The translations under genes were made by a program, and so were the position numbers. Of a stretch of DNA of 64,000 bases, positions 10,155 through 60,994 are shown one piece after another. Position 1 is the stretch's first letter, and each line of letters starts with the position of its first letter. The notes beneath the pieces were generated by a model, which searched no databases, was not told where the DNA came from, and saw nothing but the letters and a program-made list of their open reading frames with translations. The stretch is from Bilabrum cf. latius (Eukaryota), in NCBI GenBank assembly GCA_965178125.1, contig OZ237769.1, forward strand, positions 1-64,000, written 5' to 3'.

Positions 10155-10577
10155 ATGGATGGTGTCGAGACCCAAGAGATCGAGGACTGTCTCCGCTTGC
10201 TGCAAGTAAAAGCTGCTGACTTCGACAACTTGCTGGCTTCTCTACTCGTGGTGTACGATACACCGAGCGCCAATGCAGAGATCTCCCACAAGACGACCAT
10301 TCAATGGCTGCTGGAATCATCAGACCTACATTCCGATGTATCTTTGGTTGATTGCTGCCAATATGCTCCTCATGATCACCTCCCCGCGCAAGCAGCGCTG
10401 GCAAGCAGGACAGTGGCTCCCTCAGTGCATATTGATGGAGTGAGGTAGCCGTTGGCGGGTCCAACGGAGCACCTGCAGTCGCCAGGCAGTAGCAGCAGTA
10501 ACAGCAGTAACAGCAGTAGCAGCAGTAGCAGCAGTAGCAGCAGTAGCAGCAGTAGCAGCAGTAGCAGCAGTAGCAGT

Positions 10578-10616
<39 letters not shown>

Positions 10617-13600
10617 CGCAGTCTGTCAGGAGGTGCAAGCCAAGCCTCTGGGAGCTCACCAGCCCGTCCTCGCTCATCGAGAAGCGGTGGTCCCAGCAGC
10701 AGCCACAGTCTGTCAGGAGGTGCAAGCCAAGCCTCTGGGAGCTCACCAGCCCGTCCTCGCTCATCGAAGAGCGGTGGTCCCAGCAGCAGCCACAGTCTGT
10801 CAGGAGGTGCAAGCCAAGCCTCTGGGAGCTCACCAGCCCGTCCTCGCTCATCGAGAAGCGGTGGTCGCAGCAGCAGCCGCAGTCTGTCAGGAGGTGCAAG
10901 CCAAGCCTCTGGGAGCTCACCAGCCCGTCCTCGCTCATCGAGAAGCGGTGGTCCCAGCAGCAGCCATAGTCTGTCAGGAGGTGCAAGCCAAGCTTCTGGA
11001 GGTGCATCAGGCCGCATTCTGTCCCGACCAGCACCAGCGTCTGGCCAATAGAGGATGGTGGAGCTGTCACCATCGCAGAGATTCTTAGCAGATATGTGCC
11101 TTGGATTTGCACCATTGCCTCCTGTCCGTAGACAAGGAGCTCGTGCTGCGGCAAGAAAGAAGGCCATTGTTGCGGAGAGTCGATCATCTGGCTAGCCAAT
11201 CCCACCAAGTGCCAGCCGAGGCCTTCCAAGCTCGGCGTCAAGAAGGAGATCGACAAGCAGCACACTTTCGGACCGACCGTAGAGCTTTGCAGCGTTCTAG
11301 GTTCCCCCACTCTCTGACGACATGCCGCTGTCTTGTCACTGTGATTCTGCCTTTGATTTAGATGGATACACTGCACTTGGAGCGGTAGCGTGTTGTACTG
11401 GCACAGGTGAAGATGAGACTTCGAACTACTTCCTGCCTCAAACGTTGGCAAGGCCGCTGGGGCTGGACGGATCGGACCATACACTGCTGGACTGGATCAC
11501 AGATGGCGTTCTAGGCGTCCATGACTCAGATTCGCTGCTTCCGTCGTATACCAGCTTGTCTCAATCGCCTGCTTCTGGCGTGGTAGTTCGAGCGGCACAT
11601 GCCCAGCGCCCACCTGCAGGAGGCTCGATGCGACTAGCATGGTCGTCACACATTGATGGCGGTGATAGCGTCTTCAAGGATGAGCAGACTGCCATGCGAT
11701 GGTCTTCGTTAGAGAAACACGGGGATACCTTGGAGGTTGCGAGCGTGGTGGCCAAGGTGCATGCTCTGCGCCAGCAAAGTCCGCACGGTATTGGTGGCAC
11801 GAACATTCGGGTCCTGGCAGCTGGGGCTTAGGCAGACGTGTCTAGATATAGCAAACACATTGAGTAGCAGTGCAAACGTGAGTACCAGTGGACTCTCGAC
11901 AAAGCTGACAGGGGAGGCTGGTCCTCAGTGCTCCCGCACGCTGGAACCTTGTGGAGTCGGGCCGTGCATCAAGCGTCATCGAGCGGCCAGAGCGATCAAT
12001 AGGCTAATCTACCAAAGCTTCATGTCCTGAGCGGTCTTGCAACTGATATTCACGTTCAGCTTTTCGACGTTGGTGCAGCTACAGTGTCTGTCATGGTGCC
12101 GGGTGGTTTGCTTGCCTTCTGTCGAGACCTGATCGACGCCTTTGAACCTCCTATTAGGTCACTGCAACACACGCTTGATTCTGAAGGGGTTGTGGAACTA
12201 GCAAACGACGAGGGATTCTGGACCCAAGGATCACACATCGATGTCATTCGGAGTTGTTTGCTGTACGTGTTTGGCTCGGGCCTACGAGCTGCTGCCAAGA
12301 AGCTCGATTGGTAGGGACCCGAGCTAGTGATTCGTGTATAGCGCGGAGGTGGGCAAACTGGTGGATTCAAGTCATCTCTCACGCATGTTGCCAGTGGGCG
12401 AGGCCCGTAGACAAGCAGATTCTGGCCCAGTTCTCACACTCGGGACCGTAGTCCATCACGATTTCTGTCAAGTGCATTTCATTGGGTGCGATGCTTGGGG
12501 TATCCTGCTGTTGGTCAGACTGATGTGTCTGACTCCGACTCCGAGTCTGACTCCAGGTCTGACTCCGACTCTGGTGTGAGTGAGGCCACAGAAGCAAGGC
12601 AAGCAGAATCCGTTGCAGTGCTTGGCCGGGACAACTGGCTCTAGGATCAGGACGGCTTGCTGCGGCGCATGGTGCACGTTTCTCACTACAACCGATTCCT
12701 CATGATATTGCTCATGAGGCAGGTGGCAAGATGCTCAGTGTTTTATGTATAGCGAGTCGGCTGCAAGGCTTGCAAGCCGATGTCTCTCTTGCTGCAGGCT
12801 GCACAGCAACAGATGCGCAGAGCAGAGGCAGACATTGCTGCTCAGCAGTCAGCACGGGAGCGCGCTCGACAAGCTGCGATGGATGAAAGCGATGAAGAGG
12901 ACGCCAGAGGACGGAGAGGTGAGTGGTTTGGTCCGACAGGAGATCGCAGTGACGGGACATCAAGGACTCCCACAGGTCCAAGCTCTACAACAGCTGCCAG
13001 CAGCAAGCCAAAGACGCGTGTTGCCAGTCGATAGATGCAGACTGGCGTGGCGCAGGCGCGTGCATGGAGTGGATCTTAGTAGCGTCGAGGTATGCGAGAT
13101 CTTGCGGCCATCATTCATCCGCATGGTCTGCTGACTCCCCAGCAAGACGCAGACATGGCCACGTACTGCAGTTTTGGCGTTGGCTTTGAATTGTGTGGCC
13201 AGCCCTCGCACACAGTAGCAATTCCCAACCCAGCTATGATAAAGTTCATGCACAGCAGTCGTGATGAGCTTTTGCAAGAGGTTGTGCATGGTACGCCGCT
13301 CGAACGGGCTCGGTACGCCGTGGTGCGAGAGGCTACTCGTCCCTACGGGGCACTGGCGTCGGTTGGCGAGTACGCTGGGACATTGCAAGGGAAGCTGCCG
13401 TCTTCTATCTCTTGGGGTGACATCGCTGCAATACACCAGCGTGTACTTGCCAAGGATACCGCGCATGCAACCAGTGACGACGGGGGTATATCGTCCTTCC
13501 TGCCATTTGGCTGCCTGCTGTCGTCGTAGTTGCACGTGTATCAGCCCGGAGCGTTCCGATCCCAATAGCCAAGTCCAGGGACGCACGATTCCGCGCATGA

Positions 13601-16403
13601 TCTATTTCGGCGGCGTGTTCTCTCCAGGCTGCGCCACTCTGCTGAGACAGACGCACAAAGAGCAGTTGCACCCGTTGCGCGAGGTAGAGATGTCGCAGCT
13701 GCTAGTGGAGCACTCGAGACACTGCCAATTCGCAGGCATATACAGTGTGGGCTTCAAACAGCATACGAACAAAGCATGCAAAGGCTGTCGAAAGGCCTGA
13801 AAGGGTCAACGCGAGGCGAATTCGACGTGCCCGCATCAACCATGGCCTTGATGCTGGGCTGCGTGATGCTACCAGCTGAAGCAATCTACTAGCAGCAGCG
13901 CCCTGAGCACCGCGCCTAGACTACTGAAGAGTATTCTGAAGCTCCTTTCGCACGCCATTTCATAGAAGTCGTGCATGACGATGTCATGGAGGACTACATA
14001 CAGTTGGTTTACACTACTTTCAATCGAGCCCTCCAAAGGATCCAGAGGTTGCTTGTGGCATCTGTCTGCGGTTCTGACAGGATTCCGACATTCCAACGTT
14101 CTGCAATGTGGGCGCTAGCGGCATCAATGTCCCGGTGTTGCTTAGAAGGATGGGTGGCTTTACGAACGGATGCATGGTCGCAGGTTGTTGCAGAACAAAC
14201 TGCTGTGACATGGCTACCTGCAACAAGGCCTGTCCTGCGCAACCTTGGACCTGCTACAATTGAGTGGCAGGTCGTCCGCGACTGTCTGCAGTCATCTGGG
14301 TGCATGCCAGAGCAATCTGCTGTTGTTGCAGTCGCAGCAGCAATCGTCGATCAAGTTGCCAGTGCCGTGCATTCCGTTCGCGCTGGGGACGGCCACGGCT
14401 CGCGCCTGAACTCGTGGACGGTTTTAGCCGTATGTGAAATCATAGTTACGTCTTGGAGCCTTTGCGCCGTAGCAGAGTGCAACGGAATGACATGGCAAGT
14501 GGCCAGGAGGTCCACGCAATATGCCCTCTGTGGGCTTGTGTCGGCGCACGATAGCGAGCAGTTTAGGATGGGGATTAGTGGTGTCAATAGCGGGGTCGCA
14601 GGATTTCGCGCAATGGTACGAGCTGACGTTGTGGCGGCCATTCTAGACAAACTTCCTGTTCGGTGCTAGCTAGTCTATGACATGCGGGCGCTGACCGGTA
14701 TCAACGTTGCTATCACGATTGAGATGGAGCTCAGGAAGCTGTATCTGGCACAGTTGCATTTGCCAAAGCTCCACCTACGCAACGGCACACGGAAGGGAAT
14801 GCTAGCAAGGGGTAGTCTGGCTGTAGCACTGTACGGGCAGCTTGTGTCTCGATTGAAGTGCTCGAGGAGCTCGATCTTGGTGGGTCTGAGGTCGTGCATA
14901 TCGAAGACAGCAGTCTGCCCGTACCCCACCGCGGCTGCCATGTGGCGCGGGTCGACGAATGCAGGCAATTTCAGGGCAGATTACGCTACCAAGTCCTCTG
15001 CTCGAGCGTCTGGCCTTCCTGTTGCCGTTCTGACGACAGAGTCCCCAACCATGCAGCGCACGCTTCCTGCGGAATCCTCAGTAAAGACGTCGTATGTCGC
15101 GGCTCTGCTGCGAGCCGTTGTGAGCACCAGGCCGCAAGGACAGCCATCAGTAGCAGACGAGCAGTTCCGCAGCATGCTGTCCCAATGGCTGCTTCCAGCT
15201 TGCGTAATTGGATCTGCAACATTGCTACCAGACCGTATACAGCGAACTTAGCTGCCTGGAATCAAGCGACCGAGAGGTGATCAAGCACCAGACGCGGAGG
15301 ATGGACCGACCGTGGTGGTTGGGCCACCTCCAGCATCCGCATAGCCTGCCGTCATTGTTGCCCAGCGCGTCGAAGAGTTCATGGTGGAGCATGGCAAGTG
15401 GCAGATTCCAAGGTTTGGTGACAAGCAGACGTTTCAGGGAACCTTGAACCGACCAGATGGGTCTCTCAGGCGGGTGATCGATGTATGCTACCATGGCGCA
15501 GGCCTGTGCGTGGACCTGCAAGCAGCTCCATTCACCGTGCCTGCACTTTCGGATGCTCCGTACAACAAGTTGGCGGGCAAGGGAGACCTACGAATCTGCA
15601 TGCAGGACGACTTAAAGATTGTGCATGCTGCTCGCACGGAAGTCGCTCGCATCATTGGCGGTCAGGAACGTCTAAAGAGGATCCACAGATATAGGATATG
15701 GCAGGCAACCAGGGAAAGTTATCCCGCGCTGCCCAACGATACGCCCGATTTGTTCCGGCGTGCTTGCTCTGGTGAAGACATCGGGGCTACCAGCGCATCA
15801 ACGCAGTAGCCTTCAGCATCATTGAGTCCTGTCATGGAGAACCATGCAAGCCAGCAATGGCCCTCCGAACACAGTGATGAAGAGCATGATGAAATGCCGC
15901 GTTCCAAGAAGCGCTTCCGGCGGCCAGACATCCCAATAGCTTCACTGACCGGAACGTCGGGAGCTGTCAGTGACGGTGGTTTCAAGCCTCCGGCAATTGG
16001 CAACTACCAGTCTGGGCGGCCAGCATCCAGTGGAGCTGGGAGTGGTGGTGACGCGTTTACATTGCAGTCGTCACTAGGCATAGACGCAAGGAAACGTGCA
16101 GCATTGGCTGGTCTGGCACCGCCCTAGGGTTCCTCGAGCGGCACCGCAGCAGCACCCAGGGGGATCCAGCGGCTTGCAGCATCTAGCGAGGCAGAAGGAG
16201 CAGACGAGGAGGACGAGCAACGCTTGGCGATATCGCCCGTGTCAAGTTCGAGCCTACGTAGTCATGGCTCAGAAGCGTTGGAGCATGCCTACTCAGGTGC
16301 TCGTGGTGAAGTGGAGACGCTGGTTCCAGGCCATCCGCCGCAATGGATCTCCATTCCAGCCCTCGACGACGTATACTGGGACCATGACACGTATTGGGAT
16401 TGA
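10155..16403 (+). CDS. Orphan protein of about 2,080 aa (TAG read as Gln) with an N-terminal poly-Ser tract and 29-aa repeats; may have additional upstream exons
   Basis: Track ORFs 10062, 10452, 11322, 12084, 12780, 13092, 13971, 14682, 15381 and 15822 are all in one frame. The bridging segments contain only TAG stops (25 counted) and no TAA or TGA until TGA at 16401-16403. Confidence 0.8.
10487..10995 (+). repeat. (AGC/AGT)n microsatellite followed by about 4.3 copies of an 87-bp coding repeat
   Basis: CAGTCTGTCAGGAGGTGCAAGCC... recurs at 10619, 10706 and onward, encoding SLSGGASQASGSSPARPRSSRSGGPSSSH. Confidence 0.95.
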
Positions 16404-18597
16404 CAAATTGAACAAGAGTTTAGCTATGAGCAAGTACTATTCGACCTATGCTGAACAGTTTTCTAGAAATGGTCTGGAAACCAATATATGGGGCTGCCTC
16501 CAACACGTCGTCCTACATGTTGTACCAAGCCACATACTCCGTTCCGTAGATTGGTTGTTGTACAAGTACTAAGACTTTATGTATCGAGTTGGGATGCGGT
16601 CCACAAAGCGTACTGATCCCAATCGTGCACGGACACATCCGGTGACCTGACTTGCTGTGGTGACTGCCTGCCAGTGGGCTGATTCCGACGTCCGGGTTAT
16701 CAATTCCGTCCTAGGATGCCGCCGAAATGTTTCATTGAAACCTACTTAGTATCGTAGCCTGAGGTGCCGGTCAGTTGGTCAGCAAAGGAAGTCGCTTGTG
16801 CTGGCTGGCACTGAGGAGCAGTGGGGGCTTCAGCATGTCAACTGGAGGACAGCGATGCCTGCTGCGTAGCGTGTGGAATTAGACTAGATTGAATTGATGT
16901 ATGAATATGATGCGCCAGCGTTATCAAATCGCGAAGCTGTGCACGGTTCTCGTATACTTCTGGCAGCTGGAGCACCTGCTAACGTGAGCAAATCTCAAAT
17001 ATTCCCCCAAGTAATGCATAAATCGAACTGATAGCTATGATCAAGTGCAACGAAATAATAACTTGCTTGAAACAATGACGAGATTGACCGTATACACTGC
17101 TGAGTCTGGCTGCATCGTGAAGCTCAGACGCCGCGCCGCGGCATGCTGGTTCCGCTGTTCGCGACCGTTTGTGGATTCTGGCGCAACCACACCTCTCCGC
17201 GCCACAGACCGGCTCAACTGTCCTGGGGGCTGTTGGGATTCATGTTAATTACCATTTACTGCCATACATCGTTGTGTGTTCAAGGTGGAATGCTGCTGTG
17301 GCTCTGCTTTGGTCTCGTCTCCTTGGGGCGCGCGATGGCGTTTGCAGACAGAACAGCTAGGTACCGCATAGCCCGAGTACAACAACCGCCAGGTATTTTG
17401 ATTCTATTGTATTCATTCAGTTTGTTTGCTTTGTATTTGTGTTAGGTTCTGGCATCTGAATGGGAAGGTCGCTGGTCTGCTGACGTGCTTGTGCGTTGTC
17501 CAGTTTTCATGACAGCACTCAGGTATGCTGCCATGCATCGAGGGGCTATAAATTTGTTTTCAATCGTTTCATTCTTTTCCTATGCATTGCAGGCAGCCTT
17601 TAGGACCCACCTGTGCTGATGAGACCCTCTCGCCGCTTCTGGCAAACATTGCATGGAACTGAGCAGATCCGTGCGGTGGGCGAGCAGAGAGTCAGACCGG
17701 CCAACCGTATAGGGATCCGTACGGATGGCGGTTGATTCTTTGGTCTCTTCAGGGCAGTCCCAATGATGCGTCCCGTCCCCAGCTCCTGGACTCGGCCTTC
17801 GGCGGCACGCCCGTCATCCTCTCACGCGGCTGCCCGCGCACCCTCCCAGCACTTAGTCCTTGAGTCGGGCGGGAGCGCGGGTGCGTGCTTCGAGGCAGCG
17901 CGTGCCCCCGGGGCGAGAAGGAGCAGGCCAATGACGAGGAGCAGCATCCCGGGACAGGTGTCTCTGTAGATCCGATCGTCGAGTGTGGAGGTGTGTGTGG
18001 CAACACGATGAACCTGATGTCCCAGATCCGCAATGAGGTGGGGCAGGCAGTGCATGGGGAGCGCAAGCTCCTCGTGCACGCGCTTCATGCCGGCTCGCTG
18101 CCATCGGCCGCTGACTTGATCCCCGGGCTCGCGCACTTGTCGCGGCCCGTGCTGTCTCAGTCACGGACGGGCGAGCTGGATGGAGCACCTGCCCGACGGG
18201 GAGACAACCCCCTATTCTCGCGGGCGAAACACAGCAGGGCACACCTCCTTGGCAAACCCAATTTGCACGACGCGGTTTGGTCCAGACTCGCCGGGTGGGC
18301 GTCCATCCCGTGCAGCCCCCTGGGTGCTCGTCACCCACGGGCCGCACTGCCGAGGAGACCGCGGCCGAGATTCATTGCAAACCAAGCAGACACACATAAT
18401 CAAACACCAAATATGCATTGCCAATCACTTGCACCTCTTGCCGACTGCTTGCATCCTTGCAACTGGCCCAGATCCGCCTCAGTGCGATCTTGCGACCACT
18501 TCGACACTGCGCGGCACCGCCGTCTTTGCGGAACATGTCAACTTCTGCGGAACATGTCAACTTTCGCGGCGCCTTACCCTTCCCTGAGATGGTACTG

Positions 18598-19110: not shown

Positions 19111-19132
19111 ACCCTATAATCTAAAACCTAAA

Positions 19133-21453: not shown

Positions 21454-24400
21454 ATGCGCTGCGTGAGCTTTCTCTGCTTTCTCGTCATGGCGACCGCAAA
21501 CCGTCCTTTCGAGGACGTCATGCTCCGCAAAGGCAGTGATACTGAGCTGGTTAGAGGCAGCGGAGTGCTGCCCCTGAGCATCAGTGCGGGGTTTGGCACG
21601 GACCTCGCTTGGGCTGGCTACGTCGGCGGGGACGGGGCCGGGCACAGGATCTTCGTCACCGGCCACAGGTCGCGGTCACTGTGGGTCCTGTGGGTCTCGC
21701 CTGATGCCTCCAAAGTAGAGCGCTACGCTCGCATCAAGGTCAAGGAGGGGCCGGGCTTTGGCAGTAGCGTTACAGTCCTGGGTGACATCGACGGCAACTC
21801 GAGCACCATCGAGCTCGCCGTGGGCACTTCCCAGGAGCGCGCCTAGGGCGGCATGGACATCATCTCGCTCTCCCCAGACGCGCAGTCCATCGTGTGGAGG
21901 AAGCCTATCACGATTCATGGGTCCACCAACTTCGGGCTTGCAGGCTCCACCTCAGCAGGGAGCGTCGATGGCGACGGGCGGTGCGAGCTCATTGCCGGGG
22001 CTCCCGACGCAGATGCGGGCAGGGCAAACTCGGGCACCCTGCACATCCTGTGGCTGAGCGAGACGGGCACCATCACGCGCAACGTCGCGATCACCAACGG
22101 CAAGGGCGGGATGCCCTCCGGGACCATCCCGAGCAACGGCTACTTCGGGTCAAGCGTGCAGTTCGCCGGAGACGTGGACGGCGATGGCCGAGCATCCGAG
22201 ATCGCGGTATCAAGCAAGCACCCAGACAGATCAGGCACCATGTACATGCTGTGGCTGGACGATGCCGGCACCTCGATGAGCCGGATCGTCACGCTGCGAT
22301 CCACGAAGCGCCTGCAGTGGCTTGCCATGTGGGTGGGCGATATCGACGGCGACGGACTTTCATCTGAGATGGTCATGGCCATGGCAGATCTTTCCACAGG
22401 GGATGTTGGAGTGTAGGTGGCGCACCTATCTTCTGATGGCACCGAGATCCAGGGCACCCGCCATCTCACGAGGTCAGACGGCGGCCTGCCTGCCCTTGAG
22501 CTGGACCTGGCCTCCGGGCTCGGCGCATCAATGGGCGTCATACCACCGGTGCTCTCGGCCAGGACTGCAACCGCAGCCGTGCTGGTTGGTGCTCCGAACA
22601 GCGGCGCTTCCAGTGCCGGCTCCATGCACTCGGTGCCACTCGCTGCTGATGACACCCTCGCCATCCGAAGCGGCAGGGAGCTGCAGGTCGCAATGGAGGA
22701 GGCCGACGCATGCCGAGCGTGGGAAGAAGCAGCAGCGAACGACGCATATAACAGCATACCGGCGGAGGATGCCCAGTCGTCATACGCTTGCAGGCTGGGC
22801 TACCTGGGCGGCAACCACGACTGCATCGCGGCCGTGATCCCAGGAGGGCTGCTGCGCGGAGGTGCAGGGTACGTGAGCCAGTCCGACGAGTCGGCTCCGG
22901 GCATGAGCGACCCCTCCTACAGCTGGAAGCGCGTCCGTGACCTGGTGCACGTGTGGCTACACGATGCGTCGCTGCTGGGGATGCACACGCCGTGGGATCC
23001 TCAGAGTCGGTCCCGGATGCCCGGTGTGTGGGTGGGAGGAGAGCCGTGCCACGTGGTGGGCATCCGAGTGGACCCGGCGGTGGTGACGTGCCGACCGGCG
23101 CGGACGCTGCCGAAGGGCGTGCATCGCGTGGTTGTGTACTCGAAGGGTAGTTGGAGCAATAGCTCCGAGACTGATAGAAGTGGCGCGTGGAATGACGGGG
23201 TTCCTCGAGTGCTGGTGGGACCAGCGGCTAATCCGGCCTCGATCGTGCTGCAAGTCGGCAAAGTACGGAGCATTCCGCCCCTCCCATTGGGCCCAGGATC
23301 CAGGAGCACTCCCCAGCTGAGCGAAGGCGGCGGCTACGGCAGGTCCATGGCCCCGCTGGGTGACATGGATGATGTCGGTGCGTTGCAGAATGCCGTGGGG
23401 CCCCGTGCTGACGGTGATGGGGGGTTAGATGGACGGGCAAGGGAAAGCCGGTTGCTACAGTCGAGTAGCGTGGTGAAGTCGCATTAGAAGATATCTGGCA
23501 CGCAGGGCGGATTTTTAGGCCAGCTTGAAAATGGTGACCACTTTGGACATTCCATGACGTCGCTGGGGGACATGAACGGAGATGGGGTGGTGGACATTGC
23601 CGTGGGGGCGTACGGTACAGATGATGGAGGCTAGCGTAGAGGTGCAGTGTGGATCCTCTTCCTGGACACCGACGGCACGGTGAAGTCGCAGCAGAAGATA
23701 TCGGATACGCAGGGCGGCTTCACCGGGCAGCTGGGTAACTATGACATTTTTGGCTATTCGGTGACATCACTAGGGGACTTTGATAGAGATGGGGTGGTGG
23801 ACATAGCCGTGGGGGCGCATCTAAATAATGATGGAGGCCCAGATCGAGGAGCTGTCTGGATACTGTTCCTGCATTCGAACGGCACGGTGAAGTCGCAGCA
23901 GAAGATTTCGGACACGGAGGGCGGCTTCACAGGGCAGCTTGATGATAGCGACTACTTCGGCTATTCGGTGACATCACTGGGAGACATCAACGGCGACGGG
24001 GCGCTGGACATTGCCGTGGGGGCGCATTCGGACGATGATGGAGGCACTGACCGGGGTGCTGTTTGGGTACTGTTCATGCATTCGAACGGCACGGTCAGGT
24101 CGCATCAGAAGATATCGGACACGCAGGGCGGCTTCACCGGGCAGCTGGGTAATAGCGACCACTTCGGCGGTCCAGTGAAATCACTAGGTGACTTGGATGG
24201 CGACGGGGTGGTAGACATAGGCGTTGGGGTACACAAAGATGATGATGGAGGCACAGATCGAGGAGCTGTCTGGATACTATTCCTGCATTCGAACGGCACG
24301 GTGAAGTCGCAACAGAAGATATCGGACACGGAGGGCGGCTTTTTGGGTCAGATTGGAAATGGTAACTTCTTTGGACATTCCATGACCTTGGTGGGGGACT

Positions 24401-26623
24401 TGGATGGCGACGGGATGGTGGACATTGCCGTGGGGGCATTCAGAAGCTATGATGGGGGTCAAAGTCGAGGCGCTGTTTGGATACTGTTCATGCATTCGAA
24501 CAGCACGGTGAAGTCGCAGCAGAAGATTTCGGACACGCAGGGCGGCTTCACAGGGAAGCTCGACACTTGGGACCAATTCGGCGCTTCGGTGACATCACTG
24601 GGAGACATCAACGGCGACGGGGCGCTGGACATTGCCGTGGGGGCGCATTCGGACGATGATGGAGGCACTGACCGGGGTGCTGTTTGGGTGCTGTTCCTGC
24701 GAAACCTCCAACCAGAGACTTCACCTACTCCCTCCCCTGGCCCATCAAGCACTAGCACTAGCACAGCCACGGTCAGCCCCACGAGCAGCAGCACCAGTTC
24801 GGCCACGGTGTCACCGGTAAGCCATGAAGATAATGTGACAAGATGCCCGAGTCATGCAAATACGTGCCACCGGAAGCCGTTGCGATCCCACCACTGACCA
24901 CGTGCACTGTACCACCATGCCTCTTGCCCCGCAGACCCCGTCGACCACCAGCACGGCCACGGTTAGCCCCACGAGCAGCAGCACCAGTTCACCCTCTGCG
25001 TCGCCGTCCTCAATATATCGGTCGTGCCGGGATTCGCCATGCAGACAGGGGCTGTGCTACGACGTTTCTGGCTTGGATGCTCCCTTCATCTGTCTTTGCA
25101 GCCCAGGATGGACCAAGAACGATGACGGTCTCTGCACAATACGACGATAGGAGGTGCCTTGCGAAGACACGGATTGCGGTAACGGCCAGTGCATCGAGGA
25201 TGGGCGGGCGAGGGAAGGGTACTACTGCAGATGCGATGACGGATGGACGCAGCATGGCACTCTATCCAGCAGCTGCACAGTACCCCAGGATCCGTGCGAC
25301 CCATCGCCGTGCAGGAACCAAGGACAGTGCATCCAGCCCGCATATAATGGTAGCAGTCCGACTTGCGAGTGTGCCGAGGGTTTCTCCGGGGACCGATGCC
25401 AGGTAGTGGAGGTGCACGGCGTGTGCGAGAGCGAACCATGCGGGCTTGGCATCTGCATTGAGGATTCTACTAGTCATGATGGCCACAGATGCAGCTGTGA
25501 CCCGGGATCCACGTACGACGCAGCCAGAACCTGCATTTCCGCAGCACAGCTTTTCGATGATGCCAGCCCCCTGCAGCCCGCGTGCAGCGACGGCGAGAGA
25601 AATGGCATGGAGTCGGACGTCGACTGCGGGTGGGAGGGTGAGACACAGCGGGAGCAGTGCCCGCTGTGTGCTGAGGGGTAGCGGTGCCTGTCGAGTAGGA
25701 ACTGCAAAGACGGGCTTGTGTGCCGCTAGAGGACGGGCACCTGCGGGCCTGGTGTACAGCCACCGGGTTTGTGGGTCACACTGGAGCAGGTGGGAATCCG
25801 TGGAGTGTCGGTGGGTTAGTTCATGGACGTGCTGGCAGGGCTCTTCACGGCGCTTCTAAGAGCCAAGTTCGATTGCTTAGAAGTGGTCATCGACCGGGTG
25901 CTGGCGTTTGAATTGCCGGGAGTCCGACAACTGTCGATGCCGAGGGTACACGCATTGCACAGTGCATCGACTACCGCCAGGAGCAGCGCTTTACGATCCA
26001 TGCAGGAGGCAGACAGTGTGGGTGCCGGGGGATCTAGCGCGATCACGATGGATTTTAGTATCCAGTTCCAGTTCAAAGAAGACATTCTGGAGACTGAAGT
26101 AGCATTGTTAAGGTACATTCAGAGTGAACCTGTGACTGGCGGCAACGGGCTGCTGGAGGACCTTATCACCTATGTGCCTTCAATCGGATCCCGGCTGTCG
26201 GTGGTATCTGATAGATTGGAGATATCATCGGATTTGCTAGTGGTGGACAGGACGGAGAGGGTCCGGGACGAGGTTGCACCGTCACAGCATGATACAGATG
26301 ATAGTGCATCAATGGATGGGGGGCCATCCGAAGAAGCGGGGGGCGACAGTGGATCCAGGAGCGTAGTGATCGCGGCTGTCGCGTCCTCAACAGCAGTCGT
26401 GGCGCTGTGCGGGGCAGCCGCTATAGCCTTGTACATCTACACGAAGAACCGCAAGGCTACACAAAAAGAAGCCATCGCTTCATCTGTCGTAAGGCTAGGA
26501 AAAGTGTCTCTAGGGGAGCAACGGGAGGGTAAGGGGCAGGGGGGGGTGGAGGAATAGGTGGAGGAAGGAGAGAACGGGCAGAGGACGACAGCGAGGGAGG
26601 GCAGTAGGGGAGTGATTGCGTGA
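21454..26623 (+). CDS. Type I membrane protein of about 1,680 aa: signal peptide, FG-GAP (integrin-alpha-like) repeats, IPT/TIG-like segment, Ser/Thr stalk, EGF-like domains, TM helix; intron 24817-24934
   Basis: Repeats KISDTQGGFTGQL...FGYSVTSLGDxxGDGxxDIAVGA; Cys-rich EGF modules 25020-25530; TM VVIAAVASSTAVVALCGAAAIALYIY. Continuous when 9 TAGs (21844, 22414, 23485, 23632, 25148, 25679, 25727, 25817, 26555) are read through. GTAAGC...CGCAG intron; ends at TGA. Confidence 0.85.
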
Positions 26624-27360: not shown

Positions 27361-28290
27361 TTAGAGCTCCGCTACTGCCTTCTTGAACGCCACAGCCAGC
27401 TTGGGCAAGTGGTCCTTGCTCATGTAGTACACGGCATTCTCCAACGACTTCCAGTCGGCGTGCTTGTACATAACACCCACGGCGGCAACTGTTGCCCGTT
27501 CGCCTAGAGTGCGTGCTGAAGAACTCCGTGATCTCGCTCGTGCCCGTGCAGTACGCCTCCATCATCCTCCTGATGGCTGTCGACCAGCTTGCTTACCAAC
27601 GCTTTGTTGTCTTGGCGTCCGAATTCACGAACCGATAGGTCTTGGAGTCAGCAGGGTCGTCGCCACAGCCGGCTAGTCTACTGCAATGTCCCCCAGATCG
27701 TGGTTCGCTGATGCACCTCGTCCAGTCGCTTCGGTGCGGTCTGGCCCATTGGGATGAGCACTGCCTACGGCGTGTCCCTTACAGCTGTTGTCTTCCAGAG
27801 AGAGAACATGGCCATATATGTGCACTTGCCCTTGTACATCATACTCGCGTCATCCATGGTCCGGGACCGCAGCTCGTTGCCGCGACACGTGCCGCCGATG
27901 CCCACTAGTGGAGCCTCGAGGGCAAGGATCTCTTCGGGTTTGCCCGCCTTGGGCACGCTGTCCGTGTTTATTGAGGTGCTCCATCTAGATGATGGGAGCA
28001 CGCTTCTTCCGGTTGCCCACGTCGTGCAGCCTCTTGTCCCTGCCTACCATCACCGTGTTGGTCGTTCCGGATGTGTCGGGGGATGGAGATGCAGCCCGTC
28101 ACGTCGATATATCTCGACACGTGGAGAAGATTGACCTGAGCGTGGAGCCCTGGAGATTGCCGCGCTCCATGCGCAGCACCATATGGGCAGGGATCCGGTC
28201 AAGATTCTTGATCGCCTCCGCAATCGTGGTGCCGTTGGGGCCGAAGTCTATCAACAGTCTACCTACTGGACGACGCGAAGCCACTCGCGC
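27361..28290 (-). pseudogene. Tyrosine recombinase of the Ngaro element, frameshifted
   Basis: Motifs in order: KKRAPII, GIGGTCRGNEL (catalytic R), WKTT (K), FSTHSRRTG (HxxR), HADWKSLENAVYY (H/W...Y). At least two frameshifts plus in-frame TGA (28099) and TAA. Confidence 0.8.
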
Positions 28291-50910: not shown

Positions 50911-51233
50911 TACACTGTACAGCTCTTAGATCTAGTCTCACCCAATCCCCCCGGGTGAGGCAGTCTCCATTTATGCCCCCCGGACAGGCCCAGGGGGTTC
51001 GAGAATTGAAATCATCACCCACCCCACCCCCCCCAGGATAGTACCCCTGGGACCCCTGCCCGGGGTTGCACTTTGGATGAGCTTGGCTCTTGCGGCCGCA
51101 GTCTGGCCCGGCCGCACCCACCCACAGACCACCTCCTCGTCAGCCCTCCACGGGTCGCCTCATCAACGAGTTGCCCGTCTCTCCAGCTCAATGCTTTGCG
51201 AGTAAACTTTCACTTTGAGGTAGAATGCCAGAC

Positions 51234-54200
51234 TCAAGTCTTGATGATAAAGTGCAGTAAGAGCGACGGGGGGGCTGTCCGCAGCTCAGTGTACGGGGCC
51301 GGATCCTGCTGGTAGGCGGTGATGTTGTAAGCCCTGTCCTACGAGATAGTTGTTGACTTTGTCTGGTCCCCATAATAACCCGCATGGCTCATTTTCGCGG
51401 TGGTCTTCGTCCGCCGGACCACTGAGGATGCTGGCACTACCTACCCCCTGAAATCATCCTTGGCAGCGCTGGGCAGGTCACTGACGCCCTGCGGCTCCTG
51501 CGTAATGAGGGACTCAAGGAGCACGGGCTTCGCGGAGCCATAGTTGCTGCTTGGGCTACCCCCTCTGATAATATCATAGGCTACTTGGATAGTCTGCACC
51601 TTGTGCTCATGGTACGGCAGGTGGGAGTGCTCGATCCTGCCTGAGAGGTGGTACCCGAGCTGATCCAGCGCGATCCCATCGATGGACCCTCCCTGGTCCA
51701 TCACTCCCGCTGGAAACCGACCCCGCAGATCCGGGATCTTAAATTGCGTGGCTAGTACCCCTGCTTCGCTCCTGTTGGTATACGTGTCCCCAATTACGGA
51801 CCACAGGGTGGGATACCCAGCTTTGGAAAGCACTCTCCCATCGCAGGGTAGCCACCCGATCGGGATGTTGGAGGGGACACGTACGTCAGACGAGTGCGTC
51901 ACGATGGTGCCAGATGGCACTGATTCACCAGAAGAACCACCGGATCCACCAGACGCTTGCACCTGCACCACCCCATCGCCACCCACGAGGCCGGTGCTGC
52001 CACCAGATGCCTCCGCATTCACCGATGCCTGCAGCACCGACATATATTCGGAACTGATGGCCCTGCCGATAAACAACGCCCCACCACCAACGCCATCCGC
52101 CTGCGTCACAACTCGTCCGTCACTAGGACGGGCAAAGTAGTTAGCGGATGGCACAAGCGACCTGTATGGGTGGCGCAGCATCCCGGACACCGCAATGGAC
52201 ACGGACTGCCCCCCGTTGCGCATCAGGGCCACGCCATTGATGGCGTCCTGAGGCAGCCTGGCGAAGCGGGTGATGCCCACGGGGAGCGGGCCCTCCTGCA
52301 GCAGGCCGACCTGGGCAAGCGCAGACTGATCGGACGAGCTGCGATGCAGGATTAACACCGAGTCCGCCGTCGATGGAGCCCCGGACAGCCCGATCCCAAT
52401 GGCCACGGTGCTCTCGCGGGCACTTCCCAGGATGGATGCACGGCCCAGCGCAATTTGTAACCGGCCGTCCGCAGTTGCCACAGCATCCCGGACCAGGGCA
52501 GACGCACTACCGTCGCGGTACACAATGGCGAACCGGCCCACCTTGCTGCACGAGCTGGTACCCGCACCAACTGCGCCAAATGCATGAAGATCCGAGCCGC
52601 ACGGGACCGTGCCCACAGAGACACGCAGGGCAGACGGCACGCTGGATCCAGAGTCCACCAGCACAGTTGGCCGGATGTTGACCTGCGGCACTGCATCATT
52701 GGTCACCGTGACGCCCATGACTAGCAGTGCCTGCCCCTGGTCAAAGTCCCGGTAGGCCATAATGATCTCTCCTTGTGACAACAGGCCCAGGTCCATGTGC
52801 TCGATCCTGCCGCTGCTAGACACGGGCCCGCTGGCTTTGGACACGGGCTGGCTGCCTGCTCTGCTGTCGAGCGTCAGCAGGTGGTATCTGGCCTCCTTGG
52901 TCCCTGCCTTCTGGTACACTGCAAAGAATGCCCCATCGAAAGGTGCCACGGCGTCCAGATACAGGCCGGACTGCCGTGGCTCGATAACGGTGGGGTTCGA
53001 GGGCGACTGCACCTGGGCAGTAATAGTGTCTGGCTGCATAGAGGCGGTCAATGCCACCACCACGCCGTCATCTCCATCCAGCAGTGACACCAGCAGCAGC
53101 ACGCGATGTGCAGATCCAGAGGCAGATGCAGGACCCGATGATGAGGGCTGGGACGCCACCACAGCGGCGACTGCCCCGTCCCGGACACCGTCCGTCCCCA
53201 TCCAGCTCGCGTCCATTTTCTCCCACGAGGCAGTCAGGGTGGCCGTCAGCGAGGGCTCGGATCCTGAAGCCTTGATGGTGGTGATAATCACGTCGCCCAC
53301 AGTGGCGTCGCCGCTGCCCAGATCGCCAGATGCCCCAATGTAGAGGCAGACGGCGGCATTGGCTGCCAGCGGGGCGCATGAGGTCGGGGCTGCCTGTGCC
53401 GCCACGGGAGCACCAGAGGGCGTGAGGGCGGCACTGCTGACCGCCAGCACACCATCCTATGTGGATACATTCACTCTGTTGACGTGAGCCCACAAAAGTG
53501 CCCCGCTGGCGACGGAAGTTTTTGAGTGGATCTCCAGCGCCACGGCGCCTTGCCCTGACCACACCGGGGCCAGCGACACGCGATCCAGGGCTGCATCCGT
53601 CAGCGCGTTCGAAGAGTCCTAGACGTCAATGCCGAACCCAGGAGAGACGTAGCCATCGAGACCAGCGCTTACCGCCGTCATGGGACCCACGGTGTTGGGC
53701 GTGTCGGGCGAGGCGGCGTTGGGGCGCAAAGGGACGGCGAGGGACAGGCCGGCGGAGGAGCCCATCACCTCCATGTCGCCATCCACCCGCAAAGATCCAG
53801 TCAACCCAAGCAGCGACCCCTTAAACGGTGTTGTGGGTGTGCTGAGCCCTGAAGCTGCGATGTACTCGCTGCCATCTGCCTGAGAGAGATTCAATGACGG
53901 CCCCAGCTGCAGCAAGTCAATTGCTTCTGCATTCTCCCCTAGTCGCTCGGAGCTGCCGTCAGCCTAGCCCCCCAAACGTAAAAATACGGACTTTTCTATG
54001 TGAAGACCCAGTTCAACCTGCTTGAGGGAAGCATCCTGGTCGTAGAGGAGGGCTGGTTGAGTCGGGGTGAAAACTTCCAGCCGTCTGGCCTCGGCCTGTA
54101 GCTCTACGTCATTCGCAAGCGAGCCGAGCGTAGCGCTCTTGGGTGAAGCGACATCATCAAGGAGGCACGAAGGTTTCAGTCTTGCTTGCAGCCTTCTGAC

Positions 54201-54338
54201 AGTTGCCTCTAGGGCTAGCATCCGTTCGCCGAGACGTGATACATCGAGGTGGACCCCGGCAAGCTCCGCCCTGGAACAGGTAGCGCAATGGAATACTGTA
54301 AACACTGCCAATAGTGCAATGCGGGCTTGAATCCGCAT
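51234..54338 (-). CDS. Secreted protein of about 1,034 aa with a C-terminal phage tail collar domain
   Basis: Signal peptide MRIQARIALLAVFTVFHCATCS; collar motif VPSGTIV...PIGWLPCDGRVLSKAGYPTLWSVIGDTY...FKIPDLRGRFPAG; family-typical end PPSLLLHFIIKT-TGA, reached only by reading through the TAGs (53964, 53619, 53457, 51441, 51339). Confidence 0.85.
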
Positions 54339-55160
54339 CGATAACCACTTCTGTTGGGAGTAGTCTAGGAGCGCGCGGAGAGCGCCGCTCCGGATCTCGG
54401 ATCTGCGTGGCCAAAATGTGATGCCTGCCTGGCACTGATTTTCGCACCATACACTTCCCCTCATTCGTACGCTGAAATAATTTTTAGGCGAAAGTCATAA
54501 CAGATGGCTTCCGGCGATTCCATGGGAGAGTCGATTGCTGAGCTCGCATCTCAACTTCGAGTGCTGGAGCAGGCTGTCGAAGGTGCTACGTCGGCCCACA
54601 TCAAGTTGCGGACTATCGGCTCCATATCTTCGAACATGTACGGAACGATTTACTAGATATGCGCCTTTTTGTCGCCTGTACTAGCTATTGGCAGGCCTGC
54701 TTGCCGATTCTGAGTTGTCTGCTTTGAACTCGCAGATTCCACTCAACAGACGAAAGAGGGCACAACCAAACAGAAAATACCCAGCGGTCAGGCAAATCAG
54801 TGTAGTCAAGTCGTGGTGGAAGCTGAAAGATATTATACCGCGAGCATTTGATGGGCGCAGCAGGAATATACGTTTTTGAATTGTATACTTGATCGACTGC
54901 CTTTGCTTGAAATCATTATGAGACAGTCACTTACATCTAAACTAGCGTGCTTATAACATTGTATTATTTGGTGGCCAGTCGTGTAGAGCGCTTCAATGCG
55001 ATGCAAGCCTTGCTCTTGAATTTGCCCCAGCGCCCTGGCATTCTTTGTGTGGTACTGCAAGCATAAAAGCGCGCGTGCATTCGCCAATCTGCAACATAAA
55101 TCTCGAATAGCAAGATATCACTCCTTTGTACTCGACACACGCCTTTGTTGACGGATTTCG

Positions 55161-55889
55161 ATGGCGCTGAGGCATTTTGCTGTCGGCGTAGGGAGATACT
55201 CGCAATTGTGGCAACGCCGAACATTCTCGATACCAAGCAATTGGGGCAGTCGGTAGCCGAAGGCATTAAATAATACGTTGGGTCGCAGCGCCGGGAAGGC
55301 TGGCGACGCCCGTCACATACATGGCTTGAAACAGGCCAACAAGTAGCAAGTCAGGCTGCTGTCACTATCCATTTGTACGAGCAAAGTACAGCCCGTTTCG
55401 ACAAGCAGTGCATCTAATCGGCAGAGTTCTGACACCCCGAGTGCACCTGATGCGTCAGAGAGCCGTGAGCAGTCGCAGCTGCAGGCGGCGACAACCAAGC
55501 CACAAGAACCGCAATTGAATGGCTTGCTGGCTGATCGCGATTAGAAAGGCACTTTGGATAATAGAGCCCTTCGGCATGACGATAAACTCTCTGTCGGGGT
55601 GGGATAGGGTGTACTGGAGGGGGCACGGCATGTGGAGGCGAACAGCGGGCAGCGGATGGTGCCTGCGTGGCTGTGTGTGGCCTGGTGCGTGCTGAGCTTT
55701 GCGGTGGGAGGCTGGTTCGGGTACGGGGAGGGGGAGAGAGACACGAAGGCCAAGGCGGGGCGCCTGGTTAGGCACTTGCTCAGGCAGATCCAGGCAGGTG
55801 AGGAGCAAGCTGGGGACCCCATGGCGAGGGAGGAGGCAAGGAGCCAGCAAAGCACTCCCCAGCAAGCTGCCAGCGCCAATTCGCAATAA
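55161..55889 (+). CDS. Hypothetical 242-aa protein with a mitochondrial-presequence-like N-terminus and a C-terminal TM helix
   Basis: MALRHFAVGVGRYSQLWQRRTFS...; 4 in-frame TAGs; TM VPAWLCVAWCVLSFAVGGWFGY; ends at TAA. Confidence 0.55.
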
Positions 55890-56425: not shown

Positions 56426-57958
56426 ATGCGGTCCAATCTTATCACCATTGTTGCCCTTGCGGGGCTGCTTGGGGTCACAAATGCCCTGTATGGGTCAAGA
56501 GATGATGTCCAGTCTGTGTCTGGAGCCAAAGACTTCAGGGAGAAGGTCGTGAAGTCGCCGTCCGTTTCGATTGTAGAATTTTATGCCCCCGTGAGTCGAC
56601 TTTACACTTCTTTGTATGCATAGTTGGTATCGGAAGCTCCTCGCAAAGCCCATGTGTGTGCGATCCGCGCATGCCAGCTGGATGCGACTGGTGCCAGTAT
56701 ATCTCGTACGTTAATTGTGCTTCCTTAATCTGGCACATACTTGGTATCACAGTGGTGTGGACATTGCAAGAACGCGGCACCAGAAGTAAAGAAGGCGGCG
56801 AAGGCTTTGAAGGGCGTGGCCAACGTTGTGGCCGTCGATGCCACCGCCAAGGAGAACGAGAGACTGGCTGCAGAGCATGGCGTGCAGGGGTTCCCCACAT
56901 TCCTTGTTTTCGATGGGAGCGGCAAGTCAAAAGGAAAGCCTTACAACGGGGGCAGGTCGGCCAAGGACATCGCTCAGGCAGCCGTGCAAGAGGCGAAGCG
57001 TGCCGTGCAGGCTCGTCTGGGCGGGAAGGCGAAGGCATCGTCTGGTGGGAGCAAGTCCAAGAAGTCCTCCTCGGGTGGGGGCGGCGGTGGGAACCGTCGC
57101 AGCAGCAGCGAGCCCGGCGGGGGCCGGCATGTGGTCACGCTGACGGACTCCAACTTTGACGACCTGGTCATGGGCTCGGACGACCAGTGGATGGTGGAGT
57201 TCTACGCGCCCTGGTGCGGGCACTGCAAGAGCCTGTCCCCCGAGTGGGCCCAGATGGCAGAGGACGTGGAGGGCGAGGTCAAGGTGGGCGCGGTGGACGC
57301 CACGCAGGCGCAGGCGCTGGCACAGAGGTTCGGGGTGAGGGGCTATCCCACCATCAAGATGTTCCCTGCCGGGGCTGGCAAGTCGGATGGCAGCGCAGTG
57401 GACTACAACGGGCCCCGGGAGGCCGCCGGCATGACCCAGTGGGCCCTGCAGCAGCTGGAGAAATCGGGGGGAGGAGGCGCCCCCGTCACCGAGCTGGTGT
57501 CTGACGATGTGCTCCGGTCCAAGTGCAAGGGCAAGAAGATCTGCGTGGTGGCCTTCCTGCCGCACATCCTGGACGACGGCAAGAAGGGCAGAGAGGCGAG
57601 CCTTGCCATGCTGGAGGCCACCGCCAAGGCCCAGCGCAAGAGCCCCGTGCGCTTCCTGTGGACCTCTGCGGGGCAGCACCCCGAGCTGGAGCAGGCTCTG
57701 GGAGTGTCCATGTACCCGGCGGCAGCTGCCGTCAACCTGGCCAAGGGTGCCGGTGCACTGCATGTGGGCACCTTCGACGAGCGAGGCATCGGGTCCTTCG
57801 TGACGGGTGTCATGACAGGCAGGGCACGCACGTCCCCCGCCAAGATCCCCTCGCTCAAGGCCGTGAACCCCTGGGATGGGAAGGAGGGAAAGGCCCCCGC
57901 CATGGACGAGGAGGAGGACGACTTCGACCTCCAGGCCTTCCTCAGCGACGAGGAGTGA
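56426..57958 (+). CDS. PDIA6: Protein disulfide-isomerase, PDIA6/P5 type (a-a-b); intron 56591-56752
   Basis: Signal peptide MRSNLITIVALAGLLGVTNA; VEFYAP|WCGHCK split by a GTGAGT...CAG intron; second EFYAPWCGHCK; P5-type ICVVAFLPHILD and PWDGKEG; ends at TGA. Confidence 0.92.
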
Positions 57959-58150
57959 GCAAAGTGATGTTCGTGGGGAGAGGCAGGTCTCGCATAGACT
58001 ACGGCAGAGGGTATTCGGATAATAGACTACGTGGGGTTCTGGAACTCGGGCTGGCCTTGTACGGCAGGTGTTGCATTGCTTGGGGAACACTGTCGCGTCA
58101 TCTGGCTTGGCGGATCTGTGGTCTTGGTAGTGCACCTACACGATTCAAAA

Positions 58151-60994
58151 TCATTCGATTATATCCTCTAGTTCACCACCCACCACGCTTGCGACCCCTT
58201 CTGACTCCGAGTCACTCGCGAGATCGATGAGCTCTTCTCCCACATCTGCGCTGCCCCGGCTACTCCCTGCGCTGGGGTGGTTGCCACCTCCCGCACTTGC
58301 ATGCAGCTGTCGCAGGAGCCGGCCGATGCGGCCCCCGGCAGCGGGACTCCTTGGAGACCTGGCACCTGCGCCAGCACCCCCGTCCACGACTGCGCCGCCC
58401 CCCTCCCCGCCTGCATCACTGCCCTGGCTCTGACTCAGCAAGTCGACAACGTGCGAGCTGCCAGAGCCAGCGCCTTCTTTGGAACCTTGTGCTGCGCTGC
58501 TAGACGAAGACGAAGACGACGATGACGAAGCTGCCCATCGCTATAGCAGTGATGCCCCACTAGACCCTTGCTAGCTGTGGCTGCCTGCTGCCCCCGTGCC
58601 ACTGTGCCGCTGCTTTGCCAGGATACCACCCAGCCCGGGCATGCGAGGACCCGACACAGATCCGGGGGCAGCACCAGCAGGCGCATCCACGCCCTCGCCC
58701 GACTTGTTGACCGGCTGCATGAAGGTCTCGATGCCCGCCGTGCCCCCAGGGGCCTCGTCCTCGAACTGCAGCTCCGACATCTTGACGCCCATCAGCCGAA
58801 GCCGCAGACCTGCAGCAGCAGGCGTCTGGCCCGCAGACCCCCGACTCTTGGCGACCTCCACGTCGATCTCTTTGTCCAACAGGCGCCGCGCCGCAAGATA
58901 CATCGTGCGCGCATCGTTCGTGTGAGCGGGCAGCTGCACCTACCGCTGCCGCTGCGCAAAATTGGCCCCTTTCAGTTTGATCGTGAGCACGCGACCTCTG
59001 AATGCAAGCCGAGGACCCTGATCCTCAGGGCTGTCAGCGCTCCCGAAGCCCCCCGGGGCCGCAGAAGCCGCACCGGTGGGCAGAAATAGTCGGCTCGTGA
59101 CACTACCATGATCCGAAGCACTAGGCACTGCAGCAGGCGCCTCATCCTATGCGCTTGCCTCGCGACCACTGGAAGGACTATAGCTGGTGTCTTCTGCCCG
59201 GCGCTTCTTTGTGCTTTCACTCGCGCTTATGGCCTTATCTGCGCTGCGGCCCCGCTTCTACCCGACTGCAGCATCGCTTGAGTATCTGCGGCTTGACGTG
59301 GATGCTGGCCCGAAGGCAGCAGCAATTGGCTCAGGACCTTTGCCTGCCTTGCCTTTCAAACCGTCGGTCTGCTGTAAACCCTCCATGCCGTTCTCATAGC
59401 CCCTTGCCTCTGCCAATTTGCCCATACCGTCGCCAATCGCTGGATTCTCTTGCACTCCCTGCGCCTGATCCTGGCCGTGGGTCTCCTTCCTCCCCTGCAT
59501 CTGCGCCGCCAGCGAATGGATGAGCCCGCGCAAGATCACCCGCAGAGCATCGGGCCGTCCCTCGGCTCGGAAGGTCCTCTCCATGCTGATGCTCTTGCGC
59601 CGGCTCTCCTCATCGTCTCGCTCTGCATCGGCCACACCGATCGACCGCCGGGCCAGCGACTCCCGCATGGCCGGCTTCAGCACGCCCCACAAGCGCGGCA
59701 GCTCGCGCTCAAGGTCCTACACAGTGCGCACCCCCTGGCACTCCAGCATCTTCTCCGTCACCCTCCCCACGAAAGGCACCTCGCGGACCCTCTTGCCCTG
59801 CACCCACTGCTTGGATCCTCTCGCGCTGAACGGCACCACGAACTGACCGTCCGGCTTGTTCTCTTCGCTCGCCATCTTGGCAAGCATCGGATTGGGGCCT
59901 GCACCCGCGCTGCACGTCAGGCCAGTCGCTGCCTCCACCCGCCTCCGAATGTCAAGCACCACGGCCCCGATGCGGCGCTCAACGGGCAGCGACGGATCCT
60001 AGGCATCGTGCAGGCGGGGGAGCTCCTCCTCCCTGCGCTGGATCTCAGCAGGCGAGAGAGATGCCAGCGCGGCTCTTCTCGCCGCATCCGCCCCTGAGGG
60101 CGAGCCACTGGTCTCGCCTGGCTTACGGACAGCAGCTGTCTGATCAGAGGCAACCGTAGATCCAGCTTTGACAAGATCACCAGATTGCCCCGTAGATTGC
60201 CCACCAGCAGCAGCGGAAGAAGCGGCAAAGGAAGCAACTGCAGCAGAAGATGTATCGTCATCGTTAGACTGTGGGCCTGCGGCTACTATCGCAGCAGCTT
60301 GATTAGCTGGTGCATCGCATGACGGCGCCTCCGCCGCTCCTGGCATCGACACACCCGTCCGTATGCCCAGCCTCGCGCAGTGCTCGGTGATGTCGAGGTA
60401 AGCCTCGTCCAGGGAGGCAGCCCGCATGCCGGGGTCAAACTACCGATACACTGCCTTGCAGGCTTCAGAAGCCTTGCGGTACTCGTCGAAATCGCTGCGC
60501 ACGAAGACGAGGCTGGGACACAGCCGCTTGGCGATAAAGCCTGGCATTGCTGACCGCACACCAAACTTGCGCGCCGAGTAGGACGCTGTGCTGATCATTG
60601 ACATGCCTCCCACAGCCAAGGGTAGCTTCTCTAGCTTTGGATTATTCCGAATAGCTACTGCGGCAAAGAATTGATCCATGTCAACAACTACCCAGATTCG
60701 ATCCAACCGTCTGCTTGATTCAAGATGCTACATAGTCTTCCTGGCCTAAGCTGCGTGACCCTAAGCTTCATGCCGGGGCATGCGTCTAAGACTATCGTTC
60801 ATCTTTGCGATCGATGCTTCGGTTGATCTGTCCTTCCGTCTTTGCTCATCCCAGTACGAGGATCCCCTTGATGCCTGTTCAATAACTTTGGCTACATGAG
60901 CTTTGTTGACCCCTTCCATACCAGCTTTTTTGTGTGCAAATGGAACTAGGTGAGCTGCGCGTCCATCCTCAGACTTGGTGGCGCTTGCGCGCAT
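58151..60994 (-). CDS. POLK: DNA polymerase kappa (Y-family, DinB-like), 947 aa with TAG read as Gln
   Basis: N-clasp KAGMEGVNKAHVAKVIEQASRGS; VVDMDQFFAAV; STASYSARKFGVRSAMPGFIAKRLCP; SLDEAYLD; GLTCSAG...LAKMAS..NKPDGQF; little finger RKSISMERTF. Single frame with 11 TAGs, ending at TGA. Confidence 0.93.

Follow-up and report, generated by a model that had tools for sequence, protein, structure and literature searches.

The first 64,000 nucleotides of contig OZ237769.1 (C35:1-64000, called the window below) carry long open reading frames (ORFs) with many in-frame TAG codons. The question raised by this locus is whether TAG has become a sense codon in the nuclear genome while TAA has remained a stop. 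UAA and UAG are nearly always reassigned jointly, and a UAG-only split is rare. The question at stake is how the release factor eRF1 could lose UAG yet keep UAA plus UGA. The evidence from the 48.6 Mb assembly (111 contigs) indicates that the nuclear code very probably reads UAG as glutamine throughout the genome and keeps UAA and UGA as stops. The original prediction, made from the window, had proposed this TAG-only reassignment, and it is upheld by TAG at conserved Gln columns, by TAA missing from aligned coding sequence and by TAA right after C-terminal motifs.

Codon usage in the window

The window has 12 long frames with 8,503 codons, which include 66 TAG, 97 CAA and 246 CAG but no TAA or TGA. 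Eleven of the frames end in TGA and one in TAA. These counts bear out the original prediction that TAG is frequent in frame, that TAA is missing although CAA is used, and that TGA is the commonest end. However, the frames were taken from stop-to-stop lists with TAA as a stop, and the zero for TAA is partly circular. Since frames cut at TAA cannot hold TAA, the argument relies on genes that run from ATG to TGA and on data beyond the window. Two such genes are a subtelomeric ORF of 2,082 codons and no known family (10155..16403, forward strand; 25 TAG, 45 CAA, no TAA) and the DNA polymerase kappa (Pol kappa) gene (58151..60994, reverse strand; 11 TAG, no TAA). Were both codons decoded alike, the window should contain about 22 TAA, judged by its own ratio of A- to G-ending codons, and the probability of finding none is about 3e-10.

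The original prediction also relied on two TAA ends in the window. Both codons exist (55887-55889 and 27361-27363), but they are poor evidence for TAA as a stop. The first ends a 242-codon ORF with four TAG (55161..55889, forward strand); since this ORF has no Pfam match and belongs to no known family, its TAA is weak evidence. The second is ruled out. It lies in a broken piece of a repeated element (27361..27830, reverse strand) that is frameshifted, so that TAA at 27361-27363 ends one frame while another has an internal TAA at 27593-27595. The element has 11 copies with 98-100% identity, and no long intact frame is present in the four copies read. No family search confirmed the "YR" label that it had been given. 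The claim that TAA is a stop therefore holds on genes outside the window, where it is a minority stop.

TAG as a glutamine codon

The residue encoded by TAG was examined with a column test, in which 135 segments from five families matched by hidden Markov models (HMMs) were aligned to paralogues and 66 TAG sites were scored. The conserved columns under TAG (n=22) are 18 Gln, 2 Glu, 1 Lys and 1 Pro, with no Tyr, Trp or Leu. The same test gives 85 Gln and 13 Glu for CAG, and the controls TAC, TGG, TTG and GAG return Tyr, Trp, Leu and Glu. Strands in the column table were chosen by fewest stops, which flips 2 of the 135 segments (L163 and L172) and hides one TAA and one TGA; both rows are included. 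Codon counts used the reported strands, and the TAG total stays at 84, which is about 9% of the Gln codons in the segments (84/912). TAG also occurs at the catalytic glutamine of eight Rab/Ras small GTPases (Q61 in Ras). In eRF1 it encodes residue Q44, and 115 of 117 homologues have Gln at this position.

A related species is represented by a metagenome contig (L230), which has about 70% nucleotide identity and keeps the gene order protein disulfide isomerase (PDI), Pol kappa, leucine-rich repeat (LRR). Two of its orthologues hold 8 in-frame TAG, and 6 of 13 well-aligned TAG sites are opposite CAG. In its PDI orthologue a TAG stands opposite a CAG of the window gene. Since this species has in-frame TAG too, the code is older than its split from the host lineage.

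In sequencing runs that include spliced forms, contigs pass over TAG sites without a joint or a deviating letter, namely in X1 (51118-54335, spanned by one contig, and 58474-61150), X2 (58760-59257) and X3 (55056-55574). X1 and X3 together cover three of the TAG in the 55161 ORF unchanged. The run types are guessed, with a flag on X1 that it is probably DNA, and rare variants are lost in contigs. TAG sites are not among the 40 of 331 differences listed for the divergent run X4.

TAA as a stop codon

The original prediction had suggested tabulating the codon after conserved C-termini, counting in-frame TAA in HMM-aligned regions and looking for a tRNA-Gln(UUA). The results of all three agree with it. 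Among 78 gene ends in seven conserved families there are 67 TGA (about 86%), 11 TAA (about 14%) and no TAG, with TAG read through by design. The tally comprises 27 Ras, 13 E2, 9 TCP1, 4 Hsp70, 10 Arf and 14 proteasome genes plus eRF1. Outside it are three Ras rows (L075, L078 and L084), seven E2 rows with no stop in view, ten further E2 and six TCP1 rows beyond those shown, and every DEAD or kinase row.

Eight of the 11 TAA ends are anchored by a motif or a paralogue. Prenylation motifs are necessarily C-terminal, and in four genes such a motif ends right before TAA (...CVVS, ...CGC, ...GCC and ...CMIL). TAA directly follows the Hsp70 end ...IDEVD, and it directly follows ...DFI of eRF1, which is the commonest end among homologues (42/117). 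Twin Arf genes stop at the same codon, one with LKG-TAA and the other with LKA-TGA, and a pair of E2 paralogues ends in KTIEE-TAA and KTLED-TGA.

TAA is also missing as a sense codon. The 135 HMM segments hold 24,104 codons, with 84 TAG, 1 TAA and 2 TGA; the TAA and both TGA lie at most two codons from the edge of a segment. About 14 TAA would be expected from the A/G-ending ratio of other boxes (A-ending codons are 11-17% in two-codon boxes), and the probability of the observed zero internal TAA is about 5e-7. A hand count of 334 HMM rows, excluding Arf rows because they overlap with Ras, gives about 185 TAG, 4 TAA and 8 TGA. All four TAA are intronic or at exon edges, and TGA falls within two rows (C13:416403 and C20:1018244, the latter below the cut-off). 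Near contig ends the 10155-16403 ORF recurs in two identical copies and in five divergent ones (68%). Its paralogue on C15, with 59% amino acid identity, has 2,167 codons with 22 TAG and no TAA. This pair of about 2,100 codons differs at 611 synonymous sites and contains 47 TAG, 82 CAA and no TAA, and TAG is opposite CAA or CAG at 12 well-aligned sites.

A candidate UAG-reading tRNA and the release factor

A well-folded tRNA with anticodon CUA is present in one copy in the genome (C23:907607-907679; L003 1500-1574, reverse strand), with Rab and CCT genes at a distance of about 10 kb. It was not found in the viral contigs searched. A type I pattern for CUA or UUA gave four matches, of which only the CUA gene passes the ARAGORN fold; no tRNA with UUA was found by this pattern search or in the incomplete tRNA inventory.

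When the CUA tRNA is compared with 35 other nuclear tRNA sequences, tRNA-Tyr(GUA) comes closest, with 50 of 73 matches versus a mean of 35 (z 4.2). The acceptor and anticodon stems each differ from those of tRNA-Tyr by one compensated pair. The molecule has a hybrid look, with Tyr-like stems, a Glu/Gln-like D arm and the discriminator G73, as in tRNA-Gln(UUG). Eukaryotic Tyr identity is set by A73, C1-G72, G34 and U35 (available part of PMC9976931), and two of these four elements, A73 and G34, are lost in the CUA tRNA. Cross-family matches of at least 50 are common, being found in 15 of the 35 other tRNAs, so a Tyr origin is only a lead; judged from these matches, whether the CUA tRNA derives from tRNA-Tyr is a roughly even call. 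Since tRNA-Tyr is its closest match, the codon columns are the sole basis for assuming that it is charged with Gln. Several copies that are divergent but tRNA-Met(CAU)-like (L039, L044-L046) resemble tRNA-Pro(UGG), with 50-52 matches.

The eRF1 gene is on C35 near 455.5-457.4 kb (L051 3051-4924), with four exons as inferred. The protein keeps GTS, E55, NIKS, S70 and YxCxxxF, and this intact core would fit continued recognition of UAA and UGA. The changes G29A, N30D, S60V and K130H are each found in none of the 117 homologues. Q69 is present in 4 of the 117 and in PDB 8IP8; therefore, L69Q is not diagnostic. The protein differs at several unrelated positions too, so fast evolution could explain part of the changes. 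The eRF1 mRNA has two in-frame UAG in the stop-recognition domain and ends in UAA. Its own synthesis needs two UAG read-throughs, which is possibly a feedback on the release-factor level.

These parts suggest a mechanism in which the single-copy CUA tRNA would read UAG and would presumably be charged by the glutaminyl-tRNA synthetase (GlnRS), whose gene was located on C33. With UAA, a CUA anticodon would form a C:A mismatch at the wobble position, which prevents pairing (available part of PMC5304391), so UAG and UAA would come apart. On the termination side, eRF1 may have lost or weakened its recognition of UAG, and G29A, N30D, S60V, L69Q and K130H may contribute to this.

Alternative explanations

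Several observations weigh against UAG as glutamine with UAA as a stop. The CUA tRNA is nearer to tRNA-Tyr than to either tRNA-Gln (42 and 39 matches), and the 11 TAG of Pol kappa are in variable columns, so that its homologues alone do not identify the residue. Seven of the 13 well-aligned TAG sites in the L230 orthologues are opposite other residues. For TAA, three of the 11 ends (L177, L265 and L270) are without a defining motif, the 78 ends sample seven conserved families instead of the full gene set, and the broken element at 27361 has its internal TAA. The tRNA inventory includes 63 scored candidates out of 780 from Rfam, and tRNAs with an intron or a long arm escape the pattern. A Markov coding-potential test (200 kb of random sequence, T=5) called 11 of 30 TAG, 0 of 15 TGA and 0 of 1 TAA embedded, and it has no power for TAA; the four window TGA that it calls embedded lie within 39-bp tandem repeats.

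It is quite improbable that UAG is ambiguous or mainly encodes another residue. The CUA tRNA does have C1:G72, which is a determinant for the eukaryotic Tyr synthetase (available part of PMC9976931), and 12 of 14 acceptor-stem bases of tRNA-Tyr, while 2 of the 22 conserved TAG columns are Glu. However, Tyr columns number 0 for TAG and 169 for TAC, the tRNA has G73 instead of A73 and is without G34, and the Glu share is in line with that of CAG. A context-dependent code of the Condylostoma or Blastocrithidia type would make TAG Gln inside genes and a stop near poly(A), or TAA a stop at gene ends and sense elsewhere. Some UAG termination may remain, given the core motifs kept by eRF1, and the end calls read through TAG in any case. 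This is still very improbable, since none of the 78 ends read in the seven families is TAG, motif-defined ends stand directly before TGA or TAA, and there is no internal TAA. TAG is read through even close to the end, 11 codons before the CAAX motif in L083 and 5 codons before the end in a CCT subunit (L183).

A ciliate-type code (NCBI table 6), in which TAA is also Gln yet too rare to show in a GC-rich genome and TGA is the sole stop, would agree with the disfavoured A-ending codons, with the predominance of TGA ends and with the two weak TAA ends in the window. It seems extremely unlikely because none of the roughly 14 TAA expected in HMM segments is found internally, the pair of 2,100-codon paralogues has no TAA despite its 47 TAG, 82 CAA and 611 synonymous differences, TAA comes straight after prenylation motifs in four genes, and the pattern search found no tRNA(UUA). 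The assembly has oddities, namely telomere repeats fused to a gene of bacterial type (1-1660) and a second 18S on C95, which might hint that the TAGs are artefacts of misassembly, pseudogenes, small introns or RNA editing. The chance of this is practically negligible. TAG is present in single-copy essential genes (eRF1, Rab1, CCT and proteasome), the independent L230 contig has in-frame TAG too, contigs of runs with spliced forms (run types guessed) show neither a joint nor a different letter where they cross TAG sites, and the pattern is codon-specific and comes with a cognate tRNA.

Comparison with known codes

The preferred code, UAG for Gln with UAA and UGA as stops, is already known from Iotanema and a few ciliates; the Iotanema type is former NCBI table 15. 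The available part of the Iotanema spirale paper (Panek et al. 2017, PMC5304391) gives an identical codon table, in which TAG is also a minor Gln codon (about 8%, versus about 9% here). Iotanema is a fornicate, whereas the present host is a stramenopile. Its main stop is UAA (104 versus 15 UGA), its eRF1 has T32G where GTS is intact here, and its UAG-reading tRNA was a prediction. The same source describes the rhizarian exLh, in which UAG encodes Leu, UAA and UAG are decoupled and eRF1 is changed at the same position 69 (L69A, versus L69Q here).

The available text of McGowan et al. 2024 (PMC11687900) reports UAG-only changes with UAA kept as a stop, as here, with Gln in both Hartmannula sinica and Trochilia petrani and Leu in phyllopharyngean metagenome-assembled genomes from TARA. 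Two genomes of the Leu type have CUA suppressor tRNAs derived from tRNA-Leu, and according to that text none was found in Hartmannula or Trochilia, in contrast to the present genome. UAA ends 86.9-98.3% of genes in those ciliates, and its authors explain the retention of UAA by this high share. That explanation is much weaker here, as UAA makes up about 14% of ends. The paper also cites decoupling with other residues or in other lineages, as Ser in Scotinosphaera and Gln in Protocruzia tuzeti, and it includes exLh among the cases. The ciliate and hexamitid code (UAR=Gln) is like the present one in UAG and in TGA as the main stop; however, it includes UAA as Gln.

What differs from the known cases is the stramenopile host, UGA as the main stop and a suppressor tRNA nearest to tRNA-Tyr. 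A literature search that covered few subscription journals and no supplements, and for which PMC11412368 and PMC10120064 were among the partly available sources, found no report of a nuclear code change in any stramenopile, and such a change is likely to be previously unreported. A more tentative proposal is that no earlier non-standard nuclear code is known from stramenopiles and that the tRNA which reads UAG has switched identity. In this view the change G34C turned a copy of tRNA-Tyr(GUA) into an amber suppressor, and later remodelling, with a Gln/Glu-type D arm and G73, made it accept Gln. This combination is possible but somewhat doubtful. If it is true, UAG would have gone from stop to Tyr to Gln, and the two UAG in the eRF1 N-domain could couple release-factor synthesis to suppressor activity.

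The published UAG-only cases, in the sources available, come from a rhizarian that is not in culture, an anaerobe that grows slowly and ciliates with partial genomes; of the latter, the two with Gln are without an identified tRNA. Here the codon evidence, candidate tRNA, GlnRS and eRF1 are in one near chromosome-level genome, which makes direct testing possible. Since termination is UGA-dominant, decoupling does not need a near-universal UAA stop. A naturally amber-blind eukaryotic eRF1 would be of interest for genetic code expansion, and annotation with the standard code cuts genes of this lineage short.

Host and assembly

The genome has TAACCC telomere arrays and GT-AG introns. The top match of the Pol kappa in the window is Cafeteria roenbergensis with about 50% identity, so the organism is distinct from the Cafeteria in the database. 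In an IQ-TREE analysis it forms a clade with the four Cafeteria proteins on a long branch (97% support in the Shimodaira-Hasegawa-like approximate likelihood ratio test, SH-aLRT); this is a quick tree of one gene, in which 37 of 120 matches and 2 queries make up the 39 rows, with few named stramenopiles. The host therefore appears to be among or next to the bicosoecids (Bicosoecida, Stramenopiles). The nuclear code of Cafeteria is presumably the standard one.

The mitochondrion (38.4 kb) reads TGA as Trp and has a tRNA with UCA. It contains two very long, lysine-rich ORFs of 1,063 and 808 amino acids (L053 4165-7356 and L052 5624-8050), which resemble expanded ribosomal protein genes. The Cafileria mitochondrion also has TGA as Trp with a UCA tRNA (available part of PMC6723347). 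This mitochondrial feature is common to both and is not diagnostic for Bicosoecida.

At 1,700 nt, the main 18S (on C12) is short. A second, differing eukaryotic ribosomal DNA unit with an 18S is on a 17.9 kb contig (C95:6099-7900, L085). The unit is presumably dinoflagellate-like, and it suggests that the assembly includes co-culture DNA.

Other features of the window

The left end of the window has an unusual layout. A bacterial-type gene at 293-1660 (reverse strand) with laminin G and type IX secretion CHU_C domains has no TAG, low GC and a TAA end. It adjoins a telomere array, and the assembler has probably attached bacterial DNA to the end of the chromosome here. The stretch 1667-19116 consists of four telomere arrays (TAACCC) in alternation with the large ORF and two tandem arrays of 155 bp, and a 77-bp array follows at 19133-20394. 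The layout of 1667-20394 is that of nested or misassembled chromosome ends. The ORF belongs to a family of intact ORFs of about 2,100 codons with no Pfam match, which are found near the ends of eight contigs in two subfamilies that are 68% alike. The family is possibly a telomere-associated mobile element.

The other frames of the window, apart from the 55161 ORF and the broken element at 27361, end in TGA. On the forward strand, an FG-GAP repeat protein frame (21454..24897, Pfam PF01839; 4 TAG, no TAA) overlaps an EGF-domain frame (24839..26623, Pfam PF00008; 5 TAG), and the two are possibly the same gene. A large protein on the reverse strand (51234..54335; 5 TAG, start not fixed) has a phage tail collar domain (Pfam PF07484) at the C-terminus of a eukaryotic gene. 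Pol kappa, which also ends in TGA, is followed by the last exon of a coiled-coil-type spliced gene (61737..62732, forward strand; 2 TAG) and the last exon of the LRR gene (62832..64000, reverse strand; 3 TAG, one of them opposite CAG in L230). The PDI gene is PDIA6-like (56426..57958, forward strand) and has a GT-AG intron at 56591-56752. TAG seems scarcer in some housekeeping genes, with none in PDI exon 2 (within 56729-57958) and 7 in 4,553 codons of TCP1 versus 29 in 3,698 codons of Ras. Genes with high expression may avoid UAG.
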